Virus record (IMG/VR): IMGVR_UViG_3300011006_000550
DNA length: 20,000 bases
Strand: one strand, 5' to 3'
Origin: an uncultured virus (IMG/VR IMGVR_UViG_3300011006_000550)
Taxonomy: Duplodnaviria; Heunggongvirae; Uroviricota; Caudoviricetes
Below, piece by piece: positions 9,837 to 17,977 of this stretch. The notes below the pieces were generated by a model. The model saw nothing but the letters and a program-made list of their open reading frames with translations, made no database searches and had not been told where the DNA came from. Positions within the stretch are counted from its first letter, which is position 1, and every line of letters begins with the position of its first letter. Position numbers and translations under genes: made by a program.

Positions 9837-10464
9837 TCTTCAATAACTCAATGGCTTTCTCCAGAGCCTCATTGACCACATCAGCACGCAGACAACGCTC
9901 GAACTTACGGCCCTTAGCCACCTTCTCACGCTCTGCCCTGTAACTCTCCAGCAGCTTGATACAACGCTCCTTCGTCATCTTCGACTCAGGCACAAGAGTA
10001 TCTATGTGCAAAGGAGCAACACGCATGAAGTCACGCACTCGAAGATCATCAACGGCCATACGAATACCCTTCATGCAATCCGTCAGCTTCTTGCACGTTT
10101 CCTCAGAAATACCAAACTTGATGTCGATAGGATTAACATACCGCTTGCCGTCCATACCATACATACTACCGTCGGCAAACCTGAAATACATGCCGGTACC
10201 AGTAGCAGTAATCTCTACCTGATGCGATACCTTGATCCTGTTTAGATACGTGTCTTCCACCTCATGAAGCATACACTCAGGAAAACACAGAATGAAATCC
10301 TCGCCCTTATAGCGAACGTAAACCTCATAACCGTAACCAAGGAACTTCTCGATCCTTCCTACAGCATGAGTCAGATTCAATACAACTAACTTGTCAGGCA
10401 TCTGAACCTTAGCCTCGTCTGCATTGAAACCGCAAAGATCACCTTTCCTAAATTTCGGGTCCAT
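9829..10464 (-). CDS. Hypothetical protein (211 aa), first gene of the minus-strand operon
   Basis: ATG start, PKFRKGDL N-terminus typical of small phage proteins, 8-nt overlap with the next gene. Confidence 0.75.
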   Translation of the reverse strand: MDPKFRKGDLCGFNADEAKVQMPDKLVVLNLTHAVGRIEKFLGYGYEVYVRYKGEDFILCFPECMLHEVEDTYLNRIKVSHQVEITATGTGMYFRFADGSMYGMDGKRYVNPIDIKFGISEETCKKLTDCMKGIRMAVDDLRVRDFMRVAPLHIDTLVPESKMTKERCIKLLESYRAEREKVAKGRKFERCLRADVVNEALEKAIELLKNG

Positions 10465-10646
10465 CTTTGGTTAGTGAACGAACTTGAACGATATTTATAG
10501 ACCTTTTCAGAACTTCTGTCACCAGTAAACCCCTGATAACCAGCAAATTCCGCCACACAAAACAACGAAATTCACGATTTCTGGATTTCCTGGCCCCAAG
10601 ACGTTACAATCTATAGTACCTATCTATATCTAACCAAATTGCGATG

Positions 10647-10654
10647 CAAAGATA
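10647..10654 (-). promoter_or_regulatory. Bacteroidetes -7 element for the leftward operon
   Basis: Minus strand TATCTTTG followed by CA, ~180 nt upstream of ATG 10464. Confidence 0.65.
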
Positions 10655-11430
10655 CAACTTTTCATTAATATCATTCACTATTTATACAAAAAGTGCATAT
10701 TTATTAGGATTTTTTAATGAACGATATTTTTTCTACACTCTGAGATCGTTAAGAATGATGAACGATTTCGTGACATCTGACGAATTGTTAAAACGGCCCA
10801 AAAATTCAGGAAAAAAATAATTTTGAGGCGACCGCCGCCACAAATCTCGTGCCAAAAAAGGGGGTGTAGGGGGTATTTTAAGGGTATTAAAGAGTATTTA
10901 ACACTCTCTGCAAAAATTCATTAAAATTTGCTGAAATAGCCCTATTTTACACATATTTAACACTATTCCCGATATTATACCTAATAATGTAGGCTGGTTA
11001 TTTAATATTTTTTAACTTTATTTCTTTGGTTTAACAAATTTTTAGGATTCGCGCCACCATGTCATGGTAATTTATTTTTACGCCACATTGTCATAAGATT
11101 TTTCTTTACATTATGATTGATTTATATCAAGTATGATTATACATTTATGCAATAACCTTCTGGAAACGCCTTTAAACAGGGGATTTCATAAAATTGAATA
11201 TGCAATAATTTTGCGTTCCGAAATAAAGATTCTTTACACTTGAAATGTCAATATTTAATCATTATTTAACCTATAATAACATTGTCGGATTGTGCGCCCA
11301 CACATCACGATTTTGTAAACATAATTTAACTAACATGGTCGTAACATTAAGTAATATTTAGTTGTGTGCCTACACAGGCCCTTTGGGAATGCCTTTGTAC
11401 AGGGCATTATTTTGTAAATATATTTCACTA

Positions 11431-11461
11431 TTGCAAGTATGGAATTTATTTCGTAACTTTG
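11431..11461 (+). promoter_or_regulatory. Bacteroidetes promoter for the rightward module
   Basis: TTG (11431-11433), 20-nt spacer, TAACTTTG (11454-11461), ~80 nt upstream of ATG 11544. Confidence 0.65.
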
Positions 11462-11543
11462 TACTATAAGAAATGAATATTTAACCACTGCCAAACGGGG
11501 AAACGCAGCGCACCACAAAGGAGCGGAACAGCCCGAAAGATTT

Positions 11544-12158
11544 ATGTGTACATTAAACGAGACCTTAAAGAAGGTAGGAGAAAACGCCAAAGGTAGTGTC
11601 AAGGTAGAGAAAATGAAGGCCGAAATTGCCAAGGTTGCAGCCAGGTATTACGCACCTTATCGCCACGCTCTTATTAGTGAGTTGTTCAAGGGTGCCAGTG
11701 AGGACGAACTTAAGGCAGAACTTGCAGCCTTTGACGCTGACACCAAGAACGGCACACAGTTAGTTATCATCGCAGCCGACACCAAGGTGAACGCAAACGG
11801 ACAACTCACAGATGATGAGGGGAACATTCTCGAAAATGCAGTATCTTTCGCCACCGTGATTTCTACCAACAAAGACGGTGAAATCACAAAGGAGCGTCAA
11901 GTGTTCCGTGTTCCCTACATCGCAGACACCGACCAGCGTAACAACCGTATTGTTGCCTACTGGGTGCGTTTCCGTGAGACGCGCGAGGAGTCATTTGCTG
12001 CAGCCCGTGCCGCCAAGGTTGACTCTATTAAGAAGGAGTTGCAGCCGTTGTCCGTTCAGGTTGAAACATTCACCAAGTACAACGTGCCCGTACCCGCTGA
12101 ACTTTCAGAGAAGGTGGATGCTCTCAAGGCTGAACTTTCAAAACTGGGTGCGGAATAA
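11544..12158 (+). CDS. Hypothetical protein (204 aa), first gene of the rightward module
   Basis: Lies between promoter and terminator; biased codon use (CGT, AAG); helical C-terminus. Confidence 0.85.
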   Translation: MCTLNETLKKVGENAKGSVKVEKMKAEIAKVAARYYAPYRHALISELFKGASEDELKAELAAFDADTKNGTQLVIIAADTKVNANGQLTDDEGNILENAVSFATVISTNKDGEITKERQVFRVPYIADTDQRNNRIVAYWVRFRETREESFAAARAAKVDSIKKELQPLSVQVETFTKYNVPVPAELSEKVDALKAELSKLGAE

Positions 12159-12185
12159 ACGCAGACGGAAACAGACGGAAAAGAC

Positions 12186-12216
12186 GAAGGTAGGGAAATT
12201 CCTACCTTCTCTTTTT
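12186..12216 (+). terminator. Intrinsic terminator
   Basis: GAAGGTAGG-gaaatt-CCTACCTTC followed by TCTTTTT, 27 nt after the stop. Confidence 0.75.
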
Positions 12217-12243
12217 GTGCCCTGTCTTTCCAGGCCCTAAGAA

Positions 12244-12303
12244 ATCCCCTGACGAGTCTTTGAGAATTAAGACGAAACCACAGATCTGTTCTGTGGTCGG
12301 GAT
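12244..12303 (+). ncRNA. Type I hammerhead ribozyme
   Basis: Stem I ATCCC (12244-48)/GGGAT (12299-303); core CTGACGA (12249-55); stem II GTCTT/AAGAC; GAAA (12274-77); stem III CCACAGA/TCTGTGG; GTC triplet 12296-98 with predicted cut after C12298. Confidence 0.93.
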
Positions 12304-12343
12304 AATCCTTTTGTGTTTTTCCTCAGTGTATTGTCCGGCTGAG

Positions 12344-12404
12344 CGAACGGACTGAACGATTTGAACGAACGAACGATGAATAAGAGTGAACGATTGATGA
12401 ACGA
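12344..12404 (+). repeat. Cluster of (T)GAACGA direct repeats
   Basis: TGAACGA at 12353, 12362, 12387 and 12398, plus overlapping GAACGA at 12367 and 12371. Confidence 0.75.
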
Positions 12405-12408
12405 GCGA

Positions 12409-12729
12409 ATGATGTTTGTCACAAGACGTGGCCAGTCTGCTGAGATTCAGAGAAAGAACTGGCTGAGAAGACTTAGAACAAAGAGGTCTGCCGATCCCGA
12501 AGGATGGGTGACTGCAAAATTTGTTGGTCAGATGGGATTTACAAACTTTAATTTTTGTGCACATTCATGGAGAGCTATCAAGATGGAAGCCAAAATTATC
12601 GCTTCACTTCAACATGAGCCTATCGAAGTTTTGGATGCAAATACACTGATTCCATTATTCATATGTCTTCCTTGCTTTGATTCGCGTGAAGATATTATTT
12701 CATACACAGAACGTGCATTTCAGAATTAA
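12409..12729 (+). CDS. Hypothetical protein (~106 aa)
   Basis: Open frame between the hammerhead and the structured region; the longer N-terminus in the ORF track is a translation of GAACGA repeats, so ATG 12409 is preferred. Confidence 0.5.
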   Translation: MMFVTRRGQSAEIQRKNWLRRLRTKRSADPEGWVTAKFVGQMGFTNFNFCAHSWRAIKMEAKIIASLQHEPIEVLDANTLIPLFICLPCFDSREDIISYTERAFQN

Positions 12730-13401
12730 GTACGATAACACAGAGCACAGGCGCAAGCCTGTAATGTGGCTCACCTCATGGTGAACGGTTGCAAGCCCGT
12801 GCAAACAACATTCAAACGGTGAAAATGTAACGTGGAGGGGCGCAAGCCATAGCCACTACCGCACAGAGAAACCGAGCGACAACGAGCGTTTTGAACGACT
12901 TCCAGCTAATTACTTGATTTTTGTCGCCAGTGGGAGTATTGCAGCCGACCGGCGGGGTGAAACTAAAGTCCCGCAAGCCCCGCAAGGGACGAGTGACTGT
13001 TACAAATCATATTCTTAGATTATTTCTCCCGTGAGGGAGTACGATAATAACGGATAGCTACTGTCCGAGAGCGACTTGAGCAATCAAGTACGATGAACGA
13101 GTGAGTTTATCGTGGTGGTTCCCGCCAAGAGTACGAAAGCACATTTAATCACTTTAGGATGCTACGCAGTATGCAGGGCTTTGATGGTCAGGCAGCTGGC
13201 AATGAAAGACATTAAGGGTGCAAGACCCATAGCATAAAGAACGGTTTGACAGTACGATTCATAAAACTGCCACACGGAACGGTTGCAAGTAAAGAGGCCC
13301 GAAAGGGGACTTGCAGGAGAGAACGAGTACGATAACAAAAACGAAGTTCCGGAGACTACGGGAGAGAGCAGGGAAACCTGCTCTCTCTTACTTTCAACCA
13401 A
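12730..13401 (+). ncRNA. Large structured non-coding RNA candidate, family unassigned
   Basis: No credible ORF; many GNRA-capped hairpins (ACAGGC-GCAA-GCCTGT 12747-62, CCC-GCAA-GGG, CTCCC-GTGA-GGGAG, CCC-GAAA-GGG, GAGAGAGCAGG-GAAA-CCTGCTCTCTC); long-range helices 12911-19/13082-90, 12923-27/13071-75, 13275-80/13346-51, 13284-90/13309-15. Confidence 0.75.
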
Positions 13402-13419
13402 TTAAAAACAAGTACGATT

Positions 13420-13629
13420 ATGATTAAGAGAATTGCTTTGCATCTTATCGCCCTGGTGGTACTGATGCCGTGTATGTTGGTGTTTAATATCAGCGAGAAG
13501 TTATGGGTAAATATCCTTGGACTGATTTATTGTTGCTATTTGTACATCATCCTGAACGAGAGCGATGCAGCCAAGCGTTTTGTTCGTCGTTACTACCATG
13601 AGATCCTCCGTTTGCAGAACATGTTGTAG
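13420..13629 (+). CDS. Small membrane protein (69 aa), array gene 1
   Basis: Two hydrophobic segments; the TAG stop begins element 1. Confidence 0.75.
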   Translation: MIKRIALHLIALVVLMPCMLVFNISEKLWVNILGLIYCCYLYIILNESDAAKRFVRRYYHEILRLQNML

Positions 13630-13686
13630 TTTCTCTGATTTTTGTGGCAGAAGGCTGCAAAAATCGCTCACTTTCAACCACTAAAA

Positions 13687-13794
13687 ATGAACAATATGTA
13701 TTACGTAGAGATTGACAACGGAGAGAGATTCTATTTTGGCGACGATTTCAACGCTGCCGCAGTGTTCAACCATGCCGTGAATGACAGGCATTAG
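13687..13794 (+). CDS. 35-aa peptide MNNMYYVEIDNGERFYFGDDFNAAAVFNHAVNDRH
   Basis: Not in the ORF track; fills the space between elements 1 and 2, and its TAG is that of element 2. Confidence 0.65.
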   Translation: MNNMYYVEIDNGERFYFGDDFNAAAVFNHAVNDRH

Positions 13795-13844
13795 TCTTCT
13801 TTCGGCCATTGTATGGCCGAGCTATTAACCAAAGTACGATTATT

Positions 13845-16289: not shown

Positions 16290-16334
16290 TCTCTTGGCTT
16301 CCACTGAGAGGCCGCTATGTTTCACCAACAAATT

Positions 16335-17234
16335 ATGAAGAATATGGAAAGAAGAGAAAAAGTTAATGCCTTACGAGAGTTAGCTGTACGCTCTGGCCGC
16401 AACATTAGCATGGATCCCGACAGATGGGGAGAGCACATGCTTGACAGCCTTGAAAGCAGTCTTGACAAATTCCTTTCGCAGATTCCTGACGAGTTGAAGG
16501 ATGAAATGGAAGATGCCTACATTGAGAAATACAAGGAATGGCTTTACGCTCAGAGCCGGTGCTTCTCTCAGATGATTACAGGTGCAGGAGGCTGGACTCC
16601 TGCCGTGCATCGCAGACATGAGAAGACGAACGCTGCCGAACATGCTGCCTATGAACGGCTTCAGACTTGGGCAGAGAGAGTCATCAAACGATGCAACCGT
16701 CAGGAACGTCTCACGGGATGGGCCGAAGTTGAGCGTCTTCAGGAGAAGATAGACAACCTTACGAGATCTCAGGAAATGATGAAGGCCGCGAATAAGATTG
16801 TTCGCGACAAGAAACTGGCCGAGGTCGAGAAGGTTGACGAACTTGTTGCACTCGGATTCCGTGAAGAAGTCGCCATTGAAATCCTGCACCCTAAGTATGA
16901 TTGGATGCAGCCTGGATTTGCTTCTTACAGTTTGACCAATAACCTTGCTAAAATCAAGGATGCAGAGGCGAAGATGAAACGTCACGCTGCAATGGCAGAG
17001 AGAGCAACAGAAGGTGATGAAGTCCACGAATATGAGTGGGGAAAGCTCGTTGTTGCGTTTGGTGACGAACGCTACCGCTTCATTTTTGACGGCAAGCCTT
17101 CTCAGGAAATCATCAATCTGATGAAGTCGAACGCTTTCAAGTGGAGTCCCGCCAATTCTGCTTGGCAGCGTCAGATCACTACCAATGCAAAGTACGCCGT
17201 GAAGCGTATGATTGAGGAGCTTAACAACATGTAG
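16335..17234 (+). CDS. Phage/plasmid early-type protein with DUF3560/polyvalent-protein-like C-terminal domain
   Basis: SRCFSQMITG motif and C-terminal RFIFDGKPSQEIINLMKSNAFKWSPANSAWQRQIT, a pattern I recognise from DUF3560-type proteins. Confidence 0.6.
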   Translation: MKNMERREKVNALRELAVRSGRNISMDPDRWGEHMLDSLESSLDKFLSQIPDELKDEMEDAYIEKYKEWLYAQSRCFSQMITGAGGWTPAVHRRHEKTNAAEHAAYERLQTWAERVIKRCNRQERLTGWAEVERLQEKIDNLTRSQEMMKAANKIVRDKKLAEVEKVDELVALGFREEVAIEILHPKYDWMQPGFASYSLTNNLAKIKDAEAKMKRHAAMAERATEGDEVHEYEWGKLVVAFGDERYRFIFDGKPSQEIINLMKSNAFKWSPANSAWQRQITTNAKYAVKRMIEELNNM

Positions 17235-17644: not shown

Positions 17645-17977
17645 ATGGAACAGACAGCAGTTGTTACCGATGCTCAGCGCATCAATCAGATTACCGGCCG
17701 TCCTATGGCCGATTGTGAGAAACAGGCTCAGCAGATCGCAGAGTGCATCCGTGAAATGTCCTCTCGCGTCGTTGAGTTCTACTACATGAAGAAGGATGGA
17801 ACGAAGCGTCAGGCTTTCGGCACGTTGCAGCCGGAGGTGATTGTGCCTCTTATCAGCAATGCGCCCGAGCGCAAGCCGAATCCCGACCTCGTGACGTACT
17901 ACGACACCGAGGCACAGGGTTTCCGTTCATTCAAGAAGGTGAATTTCGTGGAGTACGTTAAAGTCCCTGAAGCATGA
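17645..17977 (+). CDS. WYL_2/DUF2693 Sm-like SH3 beta-barrel protein
   Basis: VVEFYYMKKDGTKRQAFGTL...VTYYDTEAQGFRSFK signature. Confidence 0.8.
   Translation: MEQTAVVTDAQRINQITGRPMADCEKQAQQIAECIREMSSRVVEFYYMKKDGTKRQAFGTLQPEVIVPLISNAPERKPNPDLVTYYDTEAQGFRSFKKVNFVEYVKVPEA

Follow-up and report, generated by a model that had tools for sequence, protein, structure and literature searches.

The window analysed here is a 20,000-nt stretch of DNA from an uncultured, rumen-type Caudoviricetes phage (IMG/VR record IMGVR_UViG_3300011006_000550), and its gene-free interval at 12730-13419 very probably encodes a conserved structured RNA of the phage's early operon, bounded at its 5′ end by a functional-looking twister ribozyme. 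An earlier reading made from the sequence alone (the sequence-only reading) had described this interval as gene-free, and it is: the upstream open reading frame (orf) has its stop codon at 12727-12729, the next ATG is at 13420, and the only two orfs in between, both on the minus strand and encoding 57 and 79 amino acids, have no match in PHROGs or Pfam. The same reading had proposed an ornate noncoding RNA of no assignable family. A conserved, structured phage RNA, mostly without an Rfam family, is indeed present, but its first 62 nt (less than one tenth of the region) belong to the known twister-P5 family, and the region is modular instead of forming one compact fold; the proviso that a strong Rfam hit would make the element known rather than new applies to the twister part and not to the remainder. 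The most unusual feature of the region, absent from the sequence-only reading, is a strand-polarised word, AGTACGA in DNA and AGUACGA in RNA.

A blastn search with 12650-13450 found no match among GenBank phages, and single-protein searches with the two upstream proteins found no related loci. Three spaced exact copies of the word, used as a search pattern, retrieved 81 loci, three of them true relatives and most of the others unrelated coding repeats or membrane-protein genes with three in-frame copies; because exact copies were required for retrieval, this set is unusable for measuring conservation of the motif. Alignment of the downstream membrane protein added two distant relatives, and a 17-base pattern from the conserved core retrieved 4 viral, 61 metagenomic and 40 genome-bin loci, of which about 27 metagenomic and 2 genome-bin loci proved to be genuinely related. 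The two genome bins, labelled Prevotella sp. and Bacteroidaceae and derived from roe deer rumen and abomasum, point to Bacteroidales hosts, binned contigs being weak host evidence. A covariance model of the conserved core (model R1 of module B, Table 1) matches 27 of 60 sources, including five loci on which it was not trained (L091, L119, L143, L172 and L176); it matches none of 30 unrelated loci, nor the distant loci L030, L086, L087, L102 and L131.

Conserved blocks of the region are separated by stretches that vary by up to hundreds of bases among relatives. Two of the blocks, modules B and C, are conserved in about 25 metagenomic phage relatives with strong compensatory changes, which is the covariation among homologs that the sequence-only reading had named as a check. 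For module B (21 distinct sequences), 97% of alignment cells at the predicted pairs are paired, with compensatory change in 12 of the 33 pairs; none of 500 shuffles reaches the covariation score, and when partners are slid by 1-3 columns, 32-47% of cells pair. Module C (20 sequences) has 94% of cells paired and compensatory change in 12 of 24 pairs, again with no shuffle of 500 as high, and the slid controls for the two modules together pair in 28-48% of cells. About 59 columns of module C are invariant, many of them unpaired, around a multi-helix junction. Pairs of G with U are common in both modules, and neither module matches any Rfam family, ribozyme and riboswitch models included. Copies of the word are found at 13038, 13087 and 13130 in module B and at 13251 (in the loop of hairpin H2) and 13326 (in the junction) in module C; in several relatives the loop of the terminal hairpin contains it as well. 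In L084/L070 (reverse-complement coordinates 1501-1687), a 94-nt unit of module B comprising hp2-hp5 is tandemly duplicated, which brings the copies of the word within the RNA to 17. A kink-turn considered at hp3/hp4 was dropped, since the G-A of the motif is base-paired within the covarying hp4.

Comparison with the relatives also sorts the individual helices that had been picked out by eye. Where at least six GNRA-capped hairpins had been counted, a second reading of the sequence gives seven, and the two hairpins noted for their G.U pairs (hp2 and hp4) are preserved by compensatory changes in the 21 relatives. Five long-range helices fared unevenly. CGGAAC/GTTCCG (helix Pa) has compensatory change in five of five pairs and TGCAAGT/ACTTGCA (helix Pb) in four of six, so these two stand; TACTTGATT/AATCAAGTA and GTCGC/GCGAC are present only in the closest relatives, where they compete with the local hairpin hp3, which covaries, and GGCAG/CTGCC is replaced in relatives by a local hairpin, TGGCAG...CTGCCA, that has one mismatch in the window. 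The plus strand folds better than shuffled sequence (-215.4 kcal/mol, z = -3.1, equalled by none of 20 shuffles), as had been expected of a genuine RNA. The minus strand is nearly as good (z = -2.55), so that folding energy alone cannot name the strand; the plus strand is assigned from the twister, the covariation and the G.U pairs. The suggestion of a ROOL- or GOLLD-like RNA was not borne out, since neither has a match at the Rfam gathering threshold or, within 12650-13700, at E values up to 10. Apart from the twister, nothing in that E-value scan was better than E = 0.67, and Rfam scans of the relatives gave twister and hammerhead matches only. The permissive scan excludes ROOL, GOLLD, group I and II introns and other ribozyme classes as far as covariance models tell.

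Table 1. Coordinates of the RNA, its ribozymes, selected copies of the word and the adjoining genes in the 20,000-nt window
Feature	Position	Strand	Remarks
Gene, first of the rightward small-gene block	11544-12158	+	upstream of the terminator-like hairpin
Terminator-like hairpin and T-run	12186-12209	+	10-pair stem, tail TCTTTTTGTG; after gene 11544-12158 and ahead of the ribozyme-flanked cassette
Candidate hammerhead, type I layout	12244-12303	+	RAGATH-1-hammerhead 29.3 bits (E 0.032, gathering 56.3); Hammerhead_1 19.6 bits (gathering 34)
Small orf, Arg-rich N-terminus	12376-12729	+	117 amino acids from ATG 12376; between hammerhead and twister
AGTACGA copy 1	12729-12735	+	overlaps last A of stop codon; 5′ of the predicted twister cut, and so predicted to stay on the upstream mRNA
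Type-P5 twister ribozyme	12739-12800	+	Rfam RF02684, 43.5 bits (gathering 37.6), E 3e-06 on the whole window
Twister helices	P2 12739-42/12765-68; P1 12748-52/12757-61; P3 hairpin 12771-12784; P4 12786-88/12797-99	+	
Module A, variable 5′ domain	12801-13002	+	length and content differ among relatives; GCAA hairpins 12839-48 and 12979-88
Module B, conserved core	13003-13159	+	five local hairpins between two invariant AU-rich stretches
Module B hairpins	hp1 13026-39; hp2 13051-67; hp3 13075-88; hp4 13090-13113; hp5 13114-26	+	33 pairs tested
Linker	13160-13194	+	insertion of about 70-100 nt here in several relatives
Module C	13195-13360	+	hairpin 13216-28; H2 13244-13273; Pa 13275-80/13346-51; Pb 13284-90/13309-15; inner GAAA hairpin 13298-13307
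Terminal hairpin, GAAA loop	13360-13389	+	13 pairs; no T-run, not called a terminator; followed by the phage's usual AACCAA-type leader
GNRA hairpins	12748-12761 GCAA; 12839-12848 GCAA; 12979-12988 GCAA; 13026-13039 GUGA; 13075-13088 GCAA; 13298-13307 GAAA; 13360-13389 GAAA	+	by reading the sequence
AGTACGA copy 7	13411-13417	+	ends 2 nt before the membrane-protein ATG; same AAGTACGATTATG arrangement in several relatives
Gene for 69-aa protein	13420-13629	+	hydrophobic N-terminal part, basic C-terminal tail; conserved downstream neighbour
AGTACGA copy	13833-13839	+	follows an intergenic hairpin; 5 nt before ATG 13845

Ribozymes, transcripts and operon setting

The twister at the 5′ end of the region exceeds the gathering threshold of the twister-P5 model in the window and, at the same place, in 11 relatives (L083, L084, L085, L092, L100, L105, L108, L112, L119, L142 and L144; 39.7-49.9 bits). 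All of the core bases are present; across 15 sequences P2, T1 and T2 are 100% pairable and invariant, with compensatory change in three of five pairs of P3 and one of three pairs of P4, and P1 covaries as well. The cut, predicted from the twister family to fall at U12762|A12763, would leave the P1 hairpin on the upstream mRNA, and the remainder would head the downstream RNA. The P1 loop holds AGUACGA in 7 of the 15 distinct relatives. An 11-mer of the twister P4 and loop, ACGGTTGCAAG (12785-95), recurs at 13279-89, the start of the inner helix of module C, and may be a trace of a duplication or of a twister-like fold.

A permissive Rfam scan of 10400-12760 found a candidate hammerhead 460 nt upstream of the twister, just past a terminator-like hairpin. 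Neither of the two Rfam models concerned reaches its gathering threshold; the core is complete in the printed alignment (CUGACGAG, CGAAAC and GUC), stems I-III are formed, and cleavage is predicted after C12298 (GUC|G). L084 has a hammerhead further upstream, as in the window, and eight loci (L083, L085, L091, L030, L096, L100, L105 and L143) have a twister-P1 upstream at 39-55 bits, below that model's threshold of 67.2. Since relatives keep either a hammerhead or a twister-P1 upstream in addition to the twister-P5, the ribozyme pair is a conserved feature; the genes that it encloses in relatives are small and variable. With the hammerhead upstream and the twister downstream, the Arg-rich orf of the window is bracketed by two self-cleaving ribozymes, and an mRNA of about 464 nt excised between them would bear a 5′-OH and a 2′,3′-cyclic phosphate. 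A 2019 review notes a suggestion that polycistronic transcripts are processed by bacterial hammerhead and twister ribozymes, whose position close to phage genes may be relevant (PMC6765202); the 2017 survey in which ROOL was defined looked for RNAs close to ribozyme-associated genes (PMC5737381). A pair that brackets one small gene, with one member defining the 5′ end of a large conserved RNA, would give the twister and hammerhead ribozymes of bacteria and phages a concrete processing role.

Seven RNA-library runs hold 6-13% of the sampled words of the stretch, and the contigs of four of them were compared with the window; these contigs come from relatives, and they show presence and continuity, not ends, strand or true abundance. 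A 604-nt contig of one run (X1) corresponds to 12788-13366 at 90-95% identity and is unbroken across five copies of the word, and shorter pieces in X3 and X7, which belong to two other studies, also fall within the RNA. In X1 the contig depth, a poor measure, is 14.5 for the RNA, 12.9 for the gene at 11546-12158 and 2.5-4.7 for the downstream genes. In two studies (X1 and X3) the contigs begin only at 12788, which is 25 nt downstream of the predicted 5′ end; as there was no DNA run to compare them with, the coincidence is no more than a weak hint. The parts that are not covered (12159-12787 by X1 and X3; 13419-13519 by X1, X3 and X7) show nothing, and the pieces of a fourth run (X2) at 12242-12278 bear unrelated loose ends.

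The window is a phage fragment that encodes a large terminase, a portal protein, a D5-type primase-helicase, an HNH endonuclease and an SPFH protein (PHROGs/Pfam). An AT-rich stretch at 10.5-11.5 kb divides leftward genes from a rightward block of small genes beginning at 11544, and the RNA is situated in the rightward block between the orf ending at 12729 and the 69-codon gene from 13420. The divergent region (10465-11560) has a GC content of 0.30-0.35 and three plus-strand matches to the Bacteroides -7 promoter consensus, the last of them 90 nt before ATG 11544; the same consensus is matched neither between the terminator-like hairpin and the hammerhead nor in the gap. Relatives of the Arg-rich orf occur in 7 of 31 related locus entries, and searches of PHROGs, Pfam, PADLOC and a protein atlas gave this orf no family match or named relative. 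The gene for the 69-aa membrane protein is present in 19 of the 31 entries, and a different gene lies downstream of the RNA in L091/L116, L092, L135, L143, L147 and L150. No nuclease candidate or defence system was found among the neighbouring proteins with PADLOC, Pfam and PHROGs. Elsewhere in the window, a tRNA gene at 252-324 on the minus strand (49.7 bits, anticodon CAU in the alignment) adjoins the terminase gene, and a 305-aa protein (16317-17231) matches phrog_6744 (unknown function) and phrog_19458 (annotated as primase) and weakly hits a DRT-associated model of PADLOC (E 4e-4).

The word AGUACGA in this RNA and in other phages

The window contains 12 copies of AGTACGA, all 12 on the plus strand, where 1.6 are expected and none of 200 shuffles reaches 12. 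Seven of them lie between 12729 and 13417, making it by far the commonest 7-mer of the gap, at irregular spacings of 309, 49, 43, 121, 75 and 85 nt. Tandem Repeats Finder reported only a 9-nt array of 2.3 copies; tandem repeats like those of ToxI in type III toxin-antitoxin systems were not found, and PADLOC gave no match on the adjoining proteins. No minus-strand copy of the word occurs in the 31 related locus entries; 195 distinct plus-strand contexts were collected. Over whole records the copies are concentrated inside the RNA (8 of 16 in G002, 10 of 17 in G003 and 17 of 20 in G004, the reversed word occurring 2-6 times per strand), which sets the word apart from genome-wide signals such as Chi. 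Its extended consensus is AGUACGAU-A-A, with no U preceding.

Within the RNA the word is tied to the structure in more than one way. In hp1 and hp3, its A-G provides the last two pairs of the stem and UACGAU the 3′ tail; about a quarter of the copies are in hairpin loops, namely those of twister P1, H2 and the terminal hairpin, and it is inside the P1 loop that the equivalent of copy 1 is found in relatives. Five fixed sites are occupied in 20 of 21, 18 of 21, 7 of 21, 8 of 20 and 6 of 20 sequences, a turnover of individual copies that is consistent with selection for their number. Where a homologous site has a degenerate version (AGAGCGA, AAAACGA, TGAACGA and AGTAGGA), it is ACGA rather than GUAC that is kept. 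Pairing of UACGA with the anticodon loop of tRNA-Thr(CGU) or with 16S rRNA was considered and dropped, as only five bases are complementary.

Gut and rumen phage contigs that do not encode this RNA carry the word in an array of 5-8 copies at 14-18-nt spacing, adjoining a small membrane-protein gene. Past the array, each gene junction over 6-25 kb has a single copy, on the strand that is transcribed, with 25 forward and 11 reverse copies in G007 and 29 and 3 in G008, against 1-7 for reversed-word controls. In G007, 12 of 20 copies follow a stop codon by 31-38 nt and precede the next ATG by 28-37 nt, and the word is directly preceded by a junction hairpin whose 3′ arm ends in the word's A-G. Most operon junctions in L193 (G007:12500-21000) and L194 (G008:34500-48000) have the order stop codon, 31-38 nt with a hairpin ending in A-G, UACGA(U)AA, 28-37 nt and ATG. 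In 18 junction-type hairpins, soft pairs of the G.U kind number 21 and those of the A.C kind 5, and for this reason the hairpins are read as plus-strand RNA and not as duplex DNA.

Three further arrangements were seen among loci bearing the word. In L074 (1272-1490), L008 (1560-1760), L086 (2501-2700) and L087 (2501-2700), mostly retrieved by the exact motif, two or three copies of AGTACGATAAT lie in frame within the small membrane-protein gene and read Ser-Thr-Ile-Ile; of the reading frames of the word, only the one that gives Ser-Thr-Ile avoids both stop codons and runs of polar residues, and selection at the nucleotide level seems to dictate this peptide in the membrane protein. In three phage loci that look unrelated, L031 (1700-1830), L040 (1690-1800) and L053 (1540-1690), AT-rich 13-mer repeats and four direct iteron-like repeats of 15-16 nt are found some 100-150 bp away from the array, and these sites may be an origin or control region. 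The clearest display of the word in loops is in L053 at 1353-1450, where alternate copies are in the loops of 5-bp hairpins (CCCGA...TCGGG and CTGGA...TCCAG).

Possible functions

The function that we tentatively favour is that of a multivalent decoy or loading platform, released by the ribozyme, for a reader of the hairpin-UACGAU signal; this reading is based on the fact that the word marks start regions and gene junctions in the phage group and the RNA concentrates it. The operon transcript would cut itself at U12762|A12763, the presumed twister site, into two products: the upstream mRNA, ending in a 2′,3′-cyclic phosphate, and a downstream RNA some 650 nt long that begins with a 5′-OH. The released RNA would either end near the hairpin at 13360-89 or continue into the membrane-protein mRNA. 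It might then serve as decoy or platform for a factor that reads hairpin-UACGAU(AAU), the least certain step of the proposal, the factor being a protein or else another copy of the same palindromic word. Finally, the RNA may set the amount of factor that is free for motif-bearing early mRNAs, by the logic of CsrB and CsrA and with no sequence relation to them. Such tuning would follow from the position of the same signal 2-5 nt before two start codons here and at nearly every junction in related phages.

Several observations weigh against the decoy or platform. A 151-nt contig from the X2 library (12728-12878) spans the predicted twister cut uncut, as either precursor RNA or DNA would. Copies enclosed by a stem of at least 5 bp amount to 23%, against 24% of random positions, so that there is no enrichment in loops of the kind seen in CsrB-type sponges, and hairpins that end immediately ahead of the word show slight enrichment only (24-34% against 19%). 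After hp3, the ACGAU of the copy at 13087 forms the 5′ arm of hp4 in a pairing that covaries, which buries this copy. Outside the RNA this phage has only five copies, three or four of them within coding sequence, and hence few targets. No use of the word by a host was seen: its 10-mer form is at background in the two Bacteroidales bins that carry a relative, with 2 and 2 copies against 3 and 1 for reversed-word controls. Conservation in the RNA is highest outside the motif, namely in the two AU-rich stretches, in hp5 and at the junctions of module C, all of which a decoy leaves unexplained. The search for a reader was also unproductive. A WYL_2 Sm-like protein (17645-17974) was rejected, being encoded in 4 of 10 motif-bearing records and absent from one that is 100% complete, as was the Arg-rich upstream orf on account of its sparse distribution among the locus entries; the NGN domain of NusG and sigma70 region 2 were each found in none of five records. 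T7-type RNA polymerase was likewise found in none of the five, in a search that matched no control genome either.

An extension of the decoy or platform proposal is doubtful: hairpin-UACGAU(AAU) may act after transcription as an address common to a large group of Bacteroidales phages, found singly at gene junctions, in arrays next to the small membrane-protein gene and even in frame within that gene, with the RNA of the window as an extreme, ribozyme-released and multivalent hub that gathers or titrates the reader and thereby times early gene expression. The reader of such an address may be the basic tail of the membrane protein, a nuclease or other copies of the palindrome.

It is unlikely that the region is no more than a long structured cis-acting 5′ leader, uncoupled from the upstream cistron by the twister and controlling the membrane-protein gene and the genes after it through stability or translation, for example by hiding or exposing the start region or by a ligand sensed through module C. 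A leader would suit the lack of a terminator-like site between the RNA and ATG 13420, the membrane-protein gene that follows in 19 of 31 locus entries, the copy of the motif that abuts its start codon and the many invariant unpaired bases of module C, which are riboswitch-like; but in the relatives named above another gene follows the RNA, some 650 nt is very long for a gene of 69 codons, the X1 contig depth (a weak measure) is 14.5 on the RNA and 2.5 on the gene, and the accumulation of motifs is unexplained. A second alternative is that hairpin-UACGAU is the cleavage signal of a sequence-specific phage or host endoribonuclease that acts on the early polycistronic RNA at junctions and leaves mRNAs protected by a 3′ hairpin, the gap being a cluster of sites that are chopped into several small hairpin RNAs or that compete for the nuclease. 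We consider this quite improbable, for the X1 contig, unbroken over five copies, indicates that at least some of the RNA escapes cutting, cleavage at the motif would take apart the conserved multi-helix modules, and PADLOC, Pfam and PHROGs gave no nuclease candidate among the neighbours, even though the operons already use two self-cleaving ribozymes and the junctions of related phages combine a fixed geometry (stop codon, hairpin, motif, about 30 nt, ATG) with a hairpin whose 3′ arm ends in the motif's A-G and whose excess of G.U over A.C pairs marks the signal as one read in RNA.

Very little probability attaches to self-association, in which the purine-flanked palindrome A-GUAC-GA would pair copies within or between RNAs, as scaffold or for gathering transcripts, after the manner of the kissing loops of s2m. 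GUAC is self-complementary, RNAalifold pairs the first copy of the motif with the last to close module B, about a quarter of the copies are in hairpin loops, and the terminal loop of s2m contains GAGUACGAU, with dimerisation through its GUAC reported as a proposal from experimental work (PMC12291111). A GUAC:GUAC helix is invariant, so covariation cannot test it; the degenerate copies, though, keep ACGA and not the palindrome, no alternative palindromes were seen, four base pairs are weak, display in loops is not above chance and the Rfam s2m model has no match. There is an equally slight chance that module B, module C or both represent a catalytic or ligand-binding RNA still to be discovered, such as a further self-cleaving class clustered with twister and hammerhead, the motif being secondary. 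Self-cleaving ribozymes cluster together and near phage genes, according to PMC5737381 and PMC6765202, and the unpaired invariant columns round the junction of module C (of about 59 in all), together with the repeat of the twister 11-mer ACGGTTGCAAG there, would fit such RNAs, against which no Rfam ribozyme or riboswitch model matches and RNA contigs cross both modules intact. We give the smallest chance of all to a signal at the level of DNA, whether iterons for the D5-type primase-helicase that the phage encodes, operators or promoters of a phage polymerase, collecting in a tolerant noncoding stretch. The arrays of L031, L040 and L053, with their 14-18-bp spacing at about 100-150 bp from iteron-like and AT-rich repeats, and the position of the motif in G007, some 30 nt ahead of start codons as would be plausible for a promoter, would agree with it. 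What speaks for RNA instead is that the word is part of the covarying stems hp1, hp3 and hp4, that G.U exceeds A.C by 21 to 5 in the flanking hairpins and that the copies are oriented with transcription over 6-25 kb in G007 and G008; the window has copies at irregular distances, and a sigma domain was found in none of five records, as was T7-type RNA polymerase, the latter without any control match.

Comparison with known systems

Literature searches on the word AGUACGA found only primers and the s2m element, and those on twister, hammerhead and phage RNAs found no description of the RNA or of the word; the supplementary motif lists of PMC5737381 may hold a related motif, although the Rfam release searched had no match. 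The RNA would add a new family for rumen and gut phages, with about 25 relatives and two covarying modules ready for a covariance model. The word ties it to a junction signal in many uncultured Bacteroidales phages, whose reader would explain how their early operons are organised, and an RNA tag with its reader could serve as a compact tool in Bacteroides. The address and hub system, if true, has no described counterpart.

The bacterial twister ribozymes reported in PMC6765202 share with the one described here a location among phage genes and near another self-cleaving ribozyme. The difference is that the ribozyme here covers under a tenth of the region and that AGUACGA occupies the P1 loop in 7 of 15 relatives. 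ROOL, as described in PMC5737381, and GOLLD resemble the RNA in length (about 650 nt), in their many helices and in their phage and rumen setting; the RNA differs in having no Rfam match, a modular layout with long variable insertions, a ribozyme at its 5′ end and a repeated word. The s2m element of coronaviruses and astroviruses has the 9-mer GAGUACGAU in common with it, with GUAC flanked by purines. In s2m this stands in a terminal loop for which kissing dimers have been proposed (PMC12291111), whereas most phage copies are outside loops and the s2m covariance model has no match at E values up to 10; a shared 9-mer is short enough that it may be a coincidence. Intergenic hairpin connectors of phage gene cassettes match the standard junction of the related phages, in which the word stands between hairpin and short leader on the way from stop codon to ATG, but in the window the copies are concentrated in one noncoding RNA and are not spread over junctions.

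The CsrB and RsmZ sponges offer the likeness that the favoured reading draws upon. Like them, the phage RNA is a hairpin-rich noncoding RNA with many copies of a short word, the word is also present at the starts of mRNAs (13411 and 13833), and single copies turn over while the overall number is kept. It is not a member of their family, the PrrB_RsmZ model scoring 14.7 bits against a gathering threshold of 44. The repeated word is AGUACGA and not GGA, it is not enriched in loops, no candidate for a binding protein was found, and the phage RNA has large conserved domains without a counterpart in CsrB.

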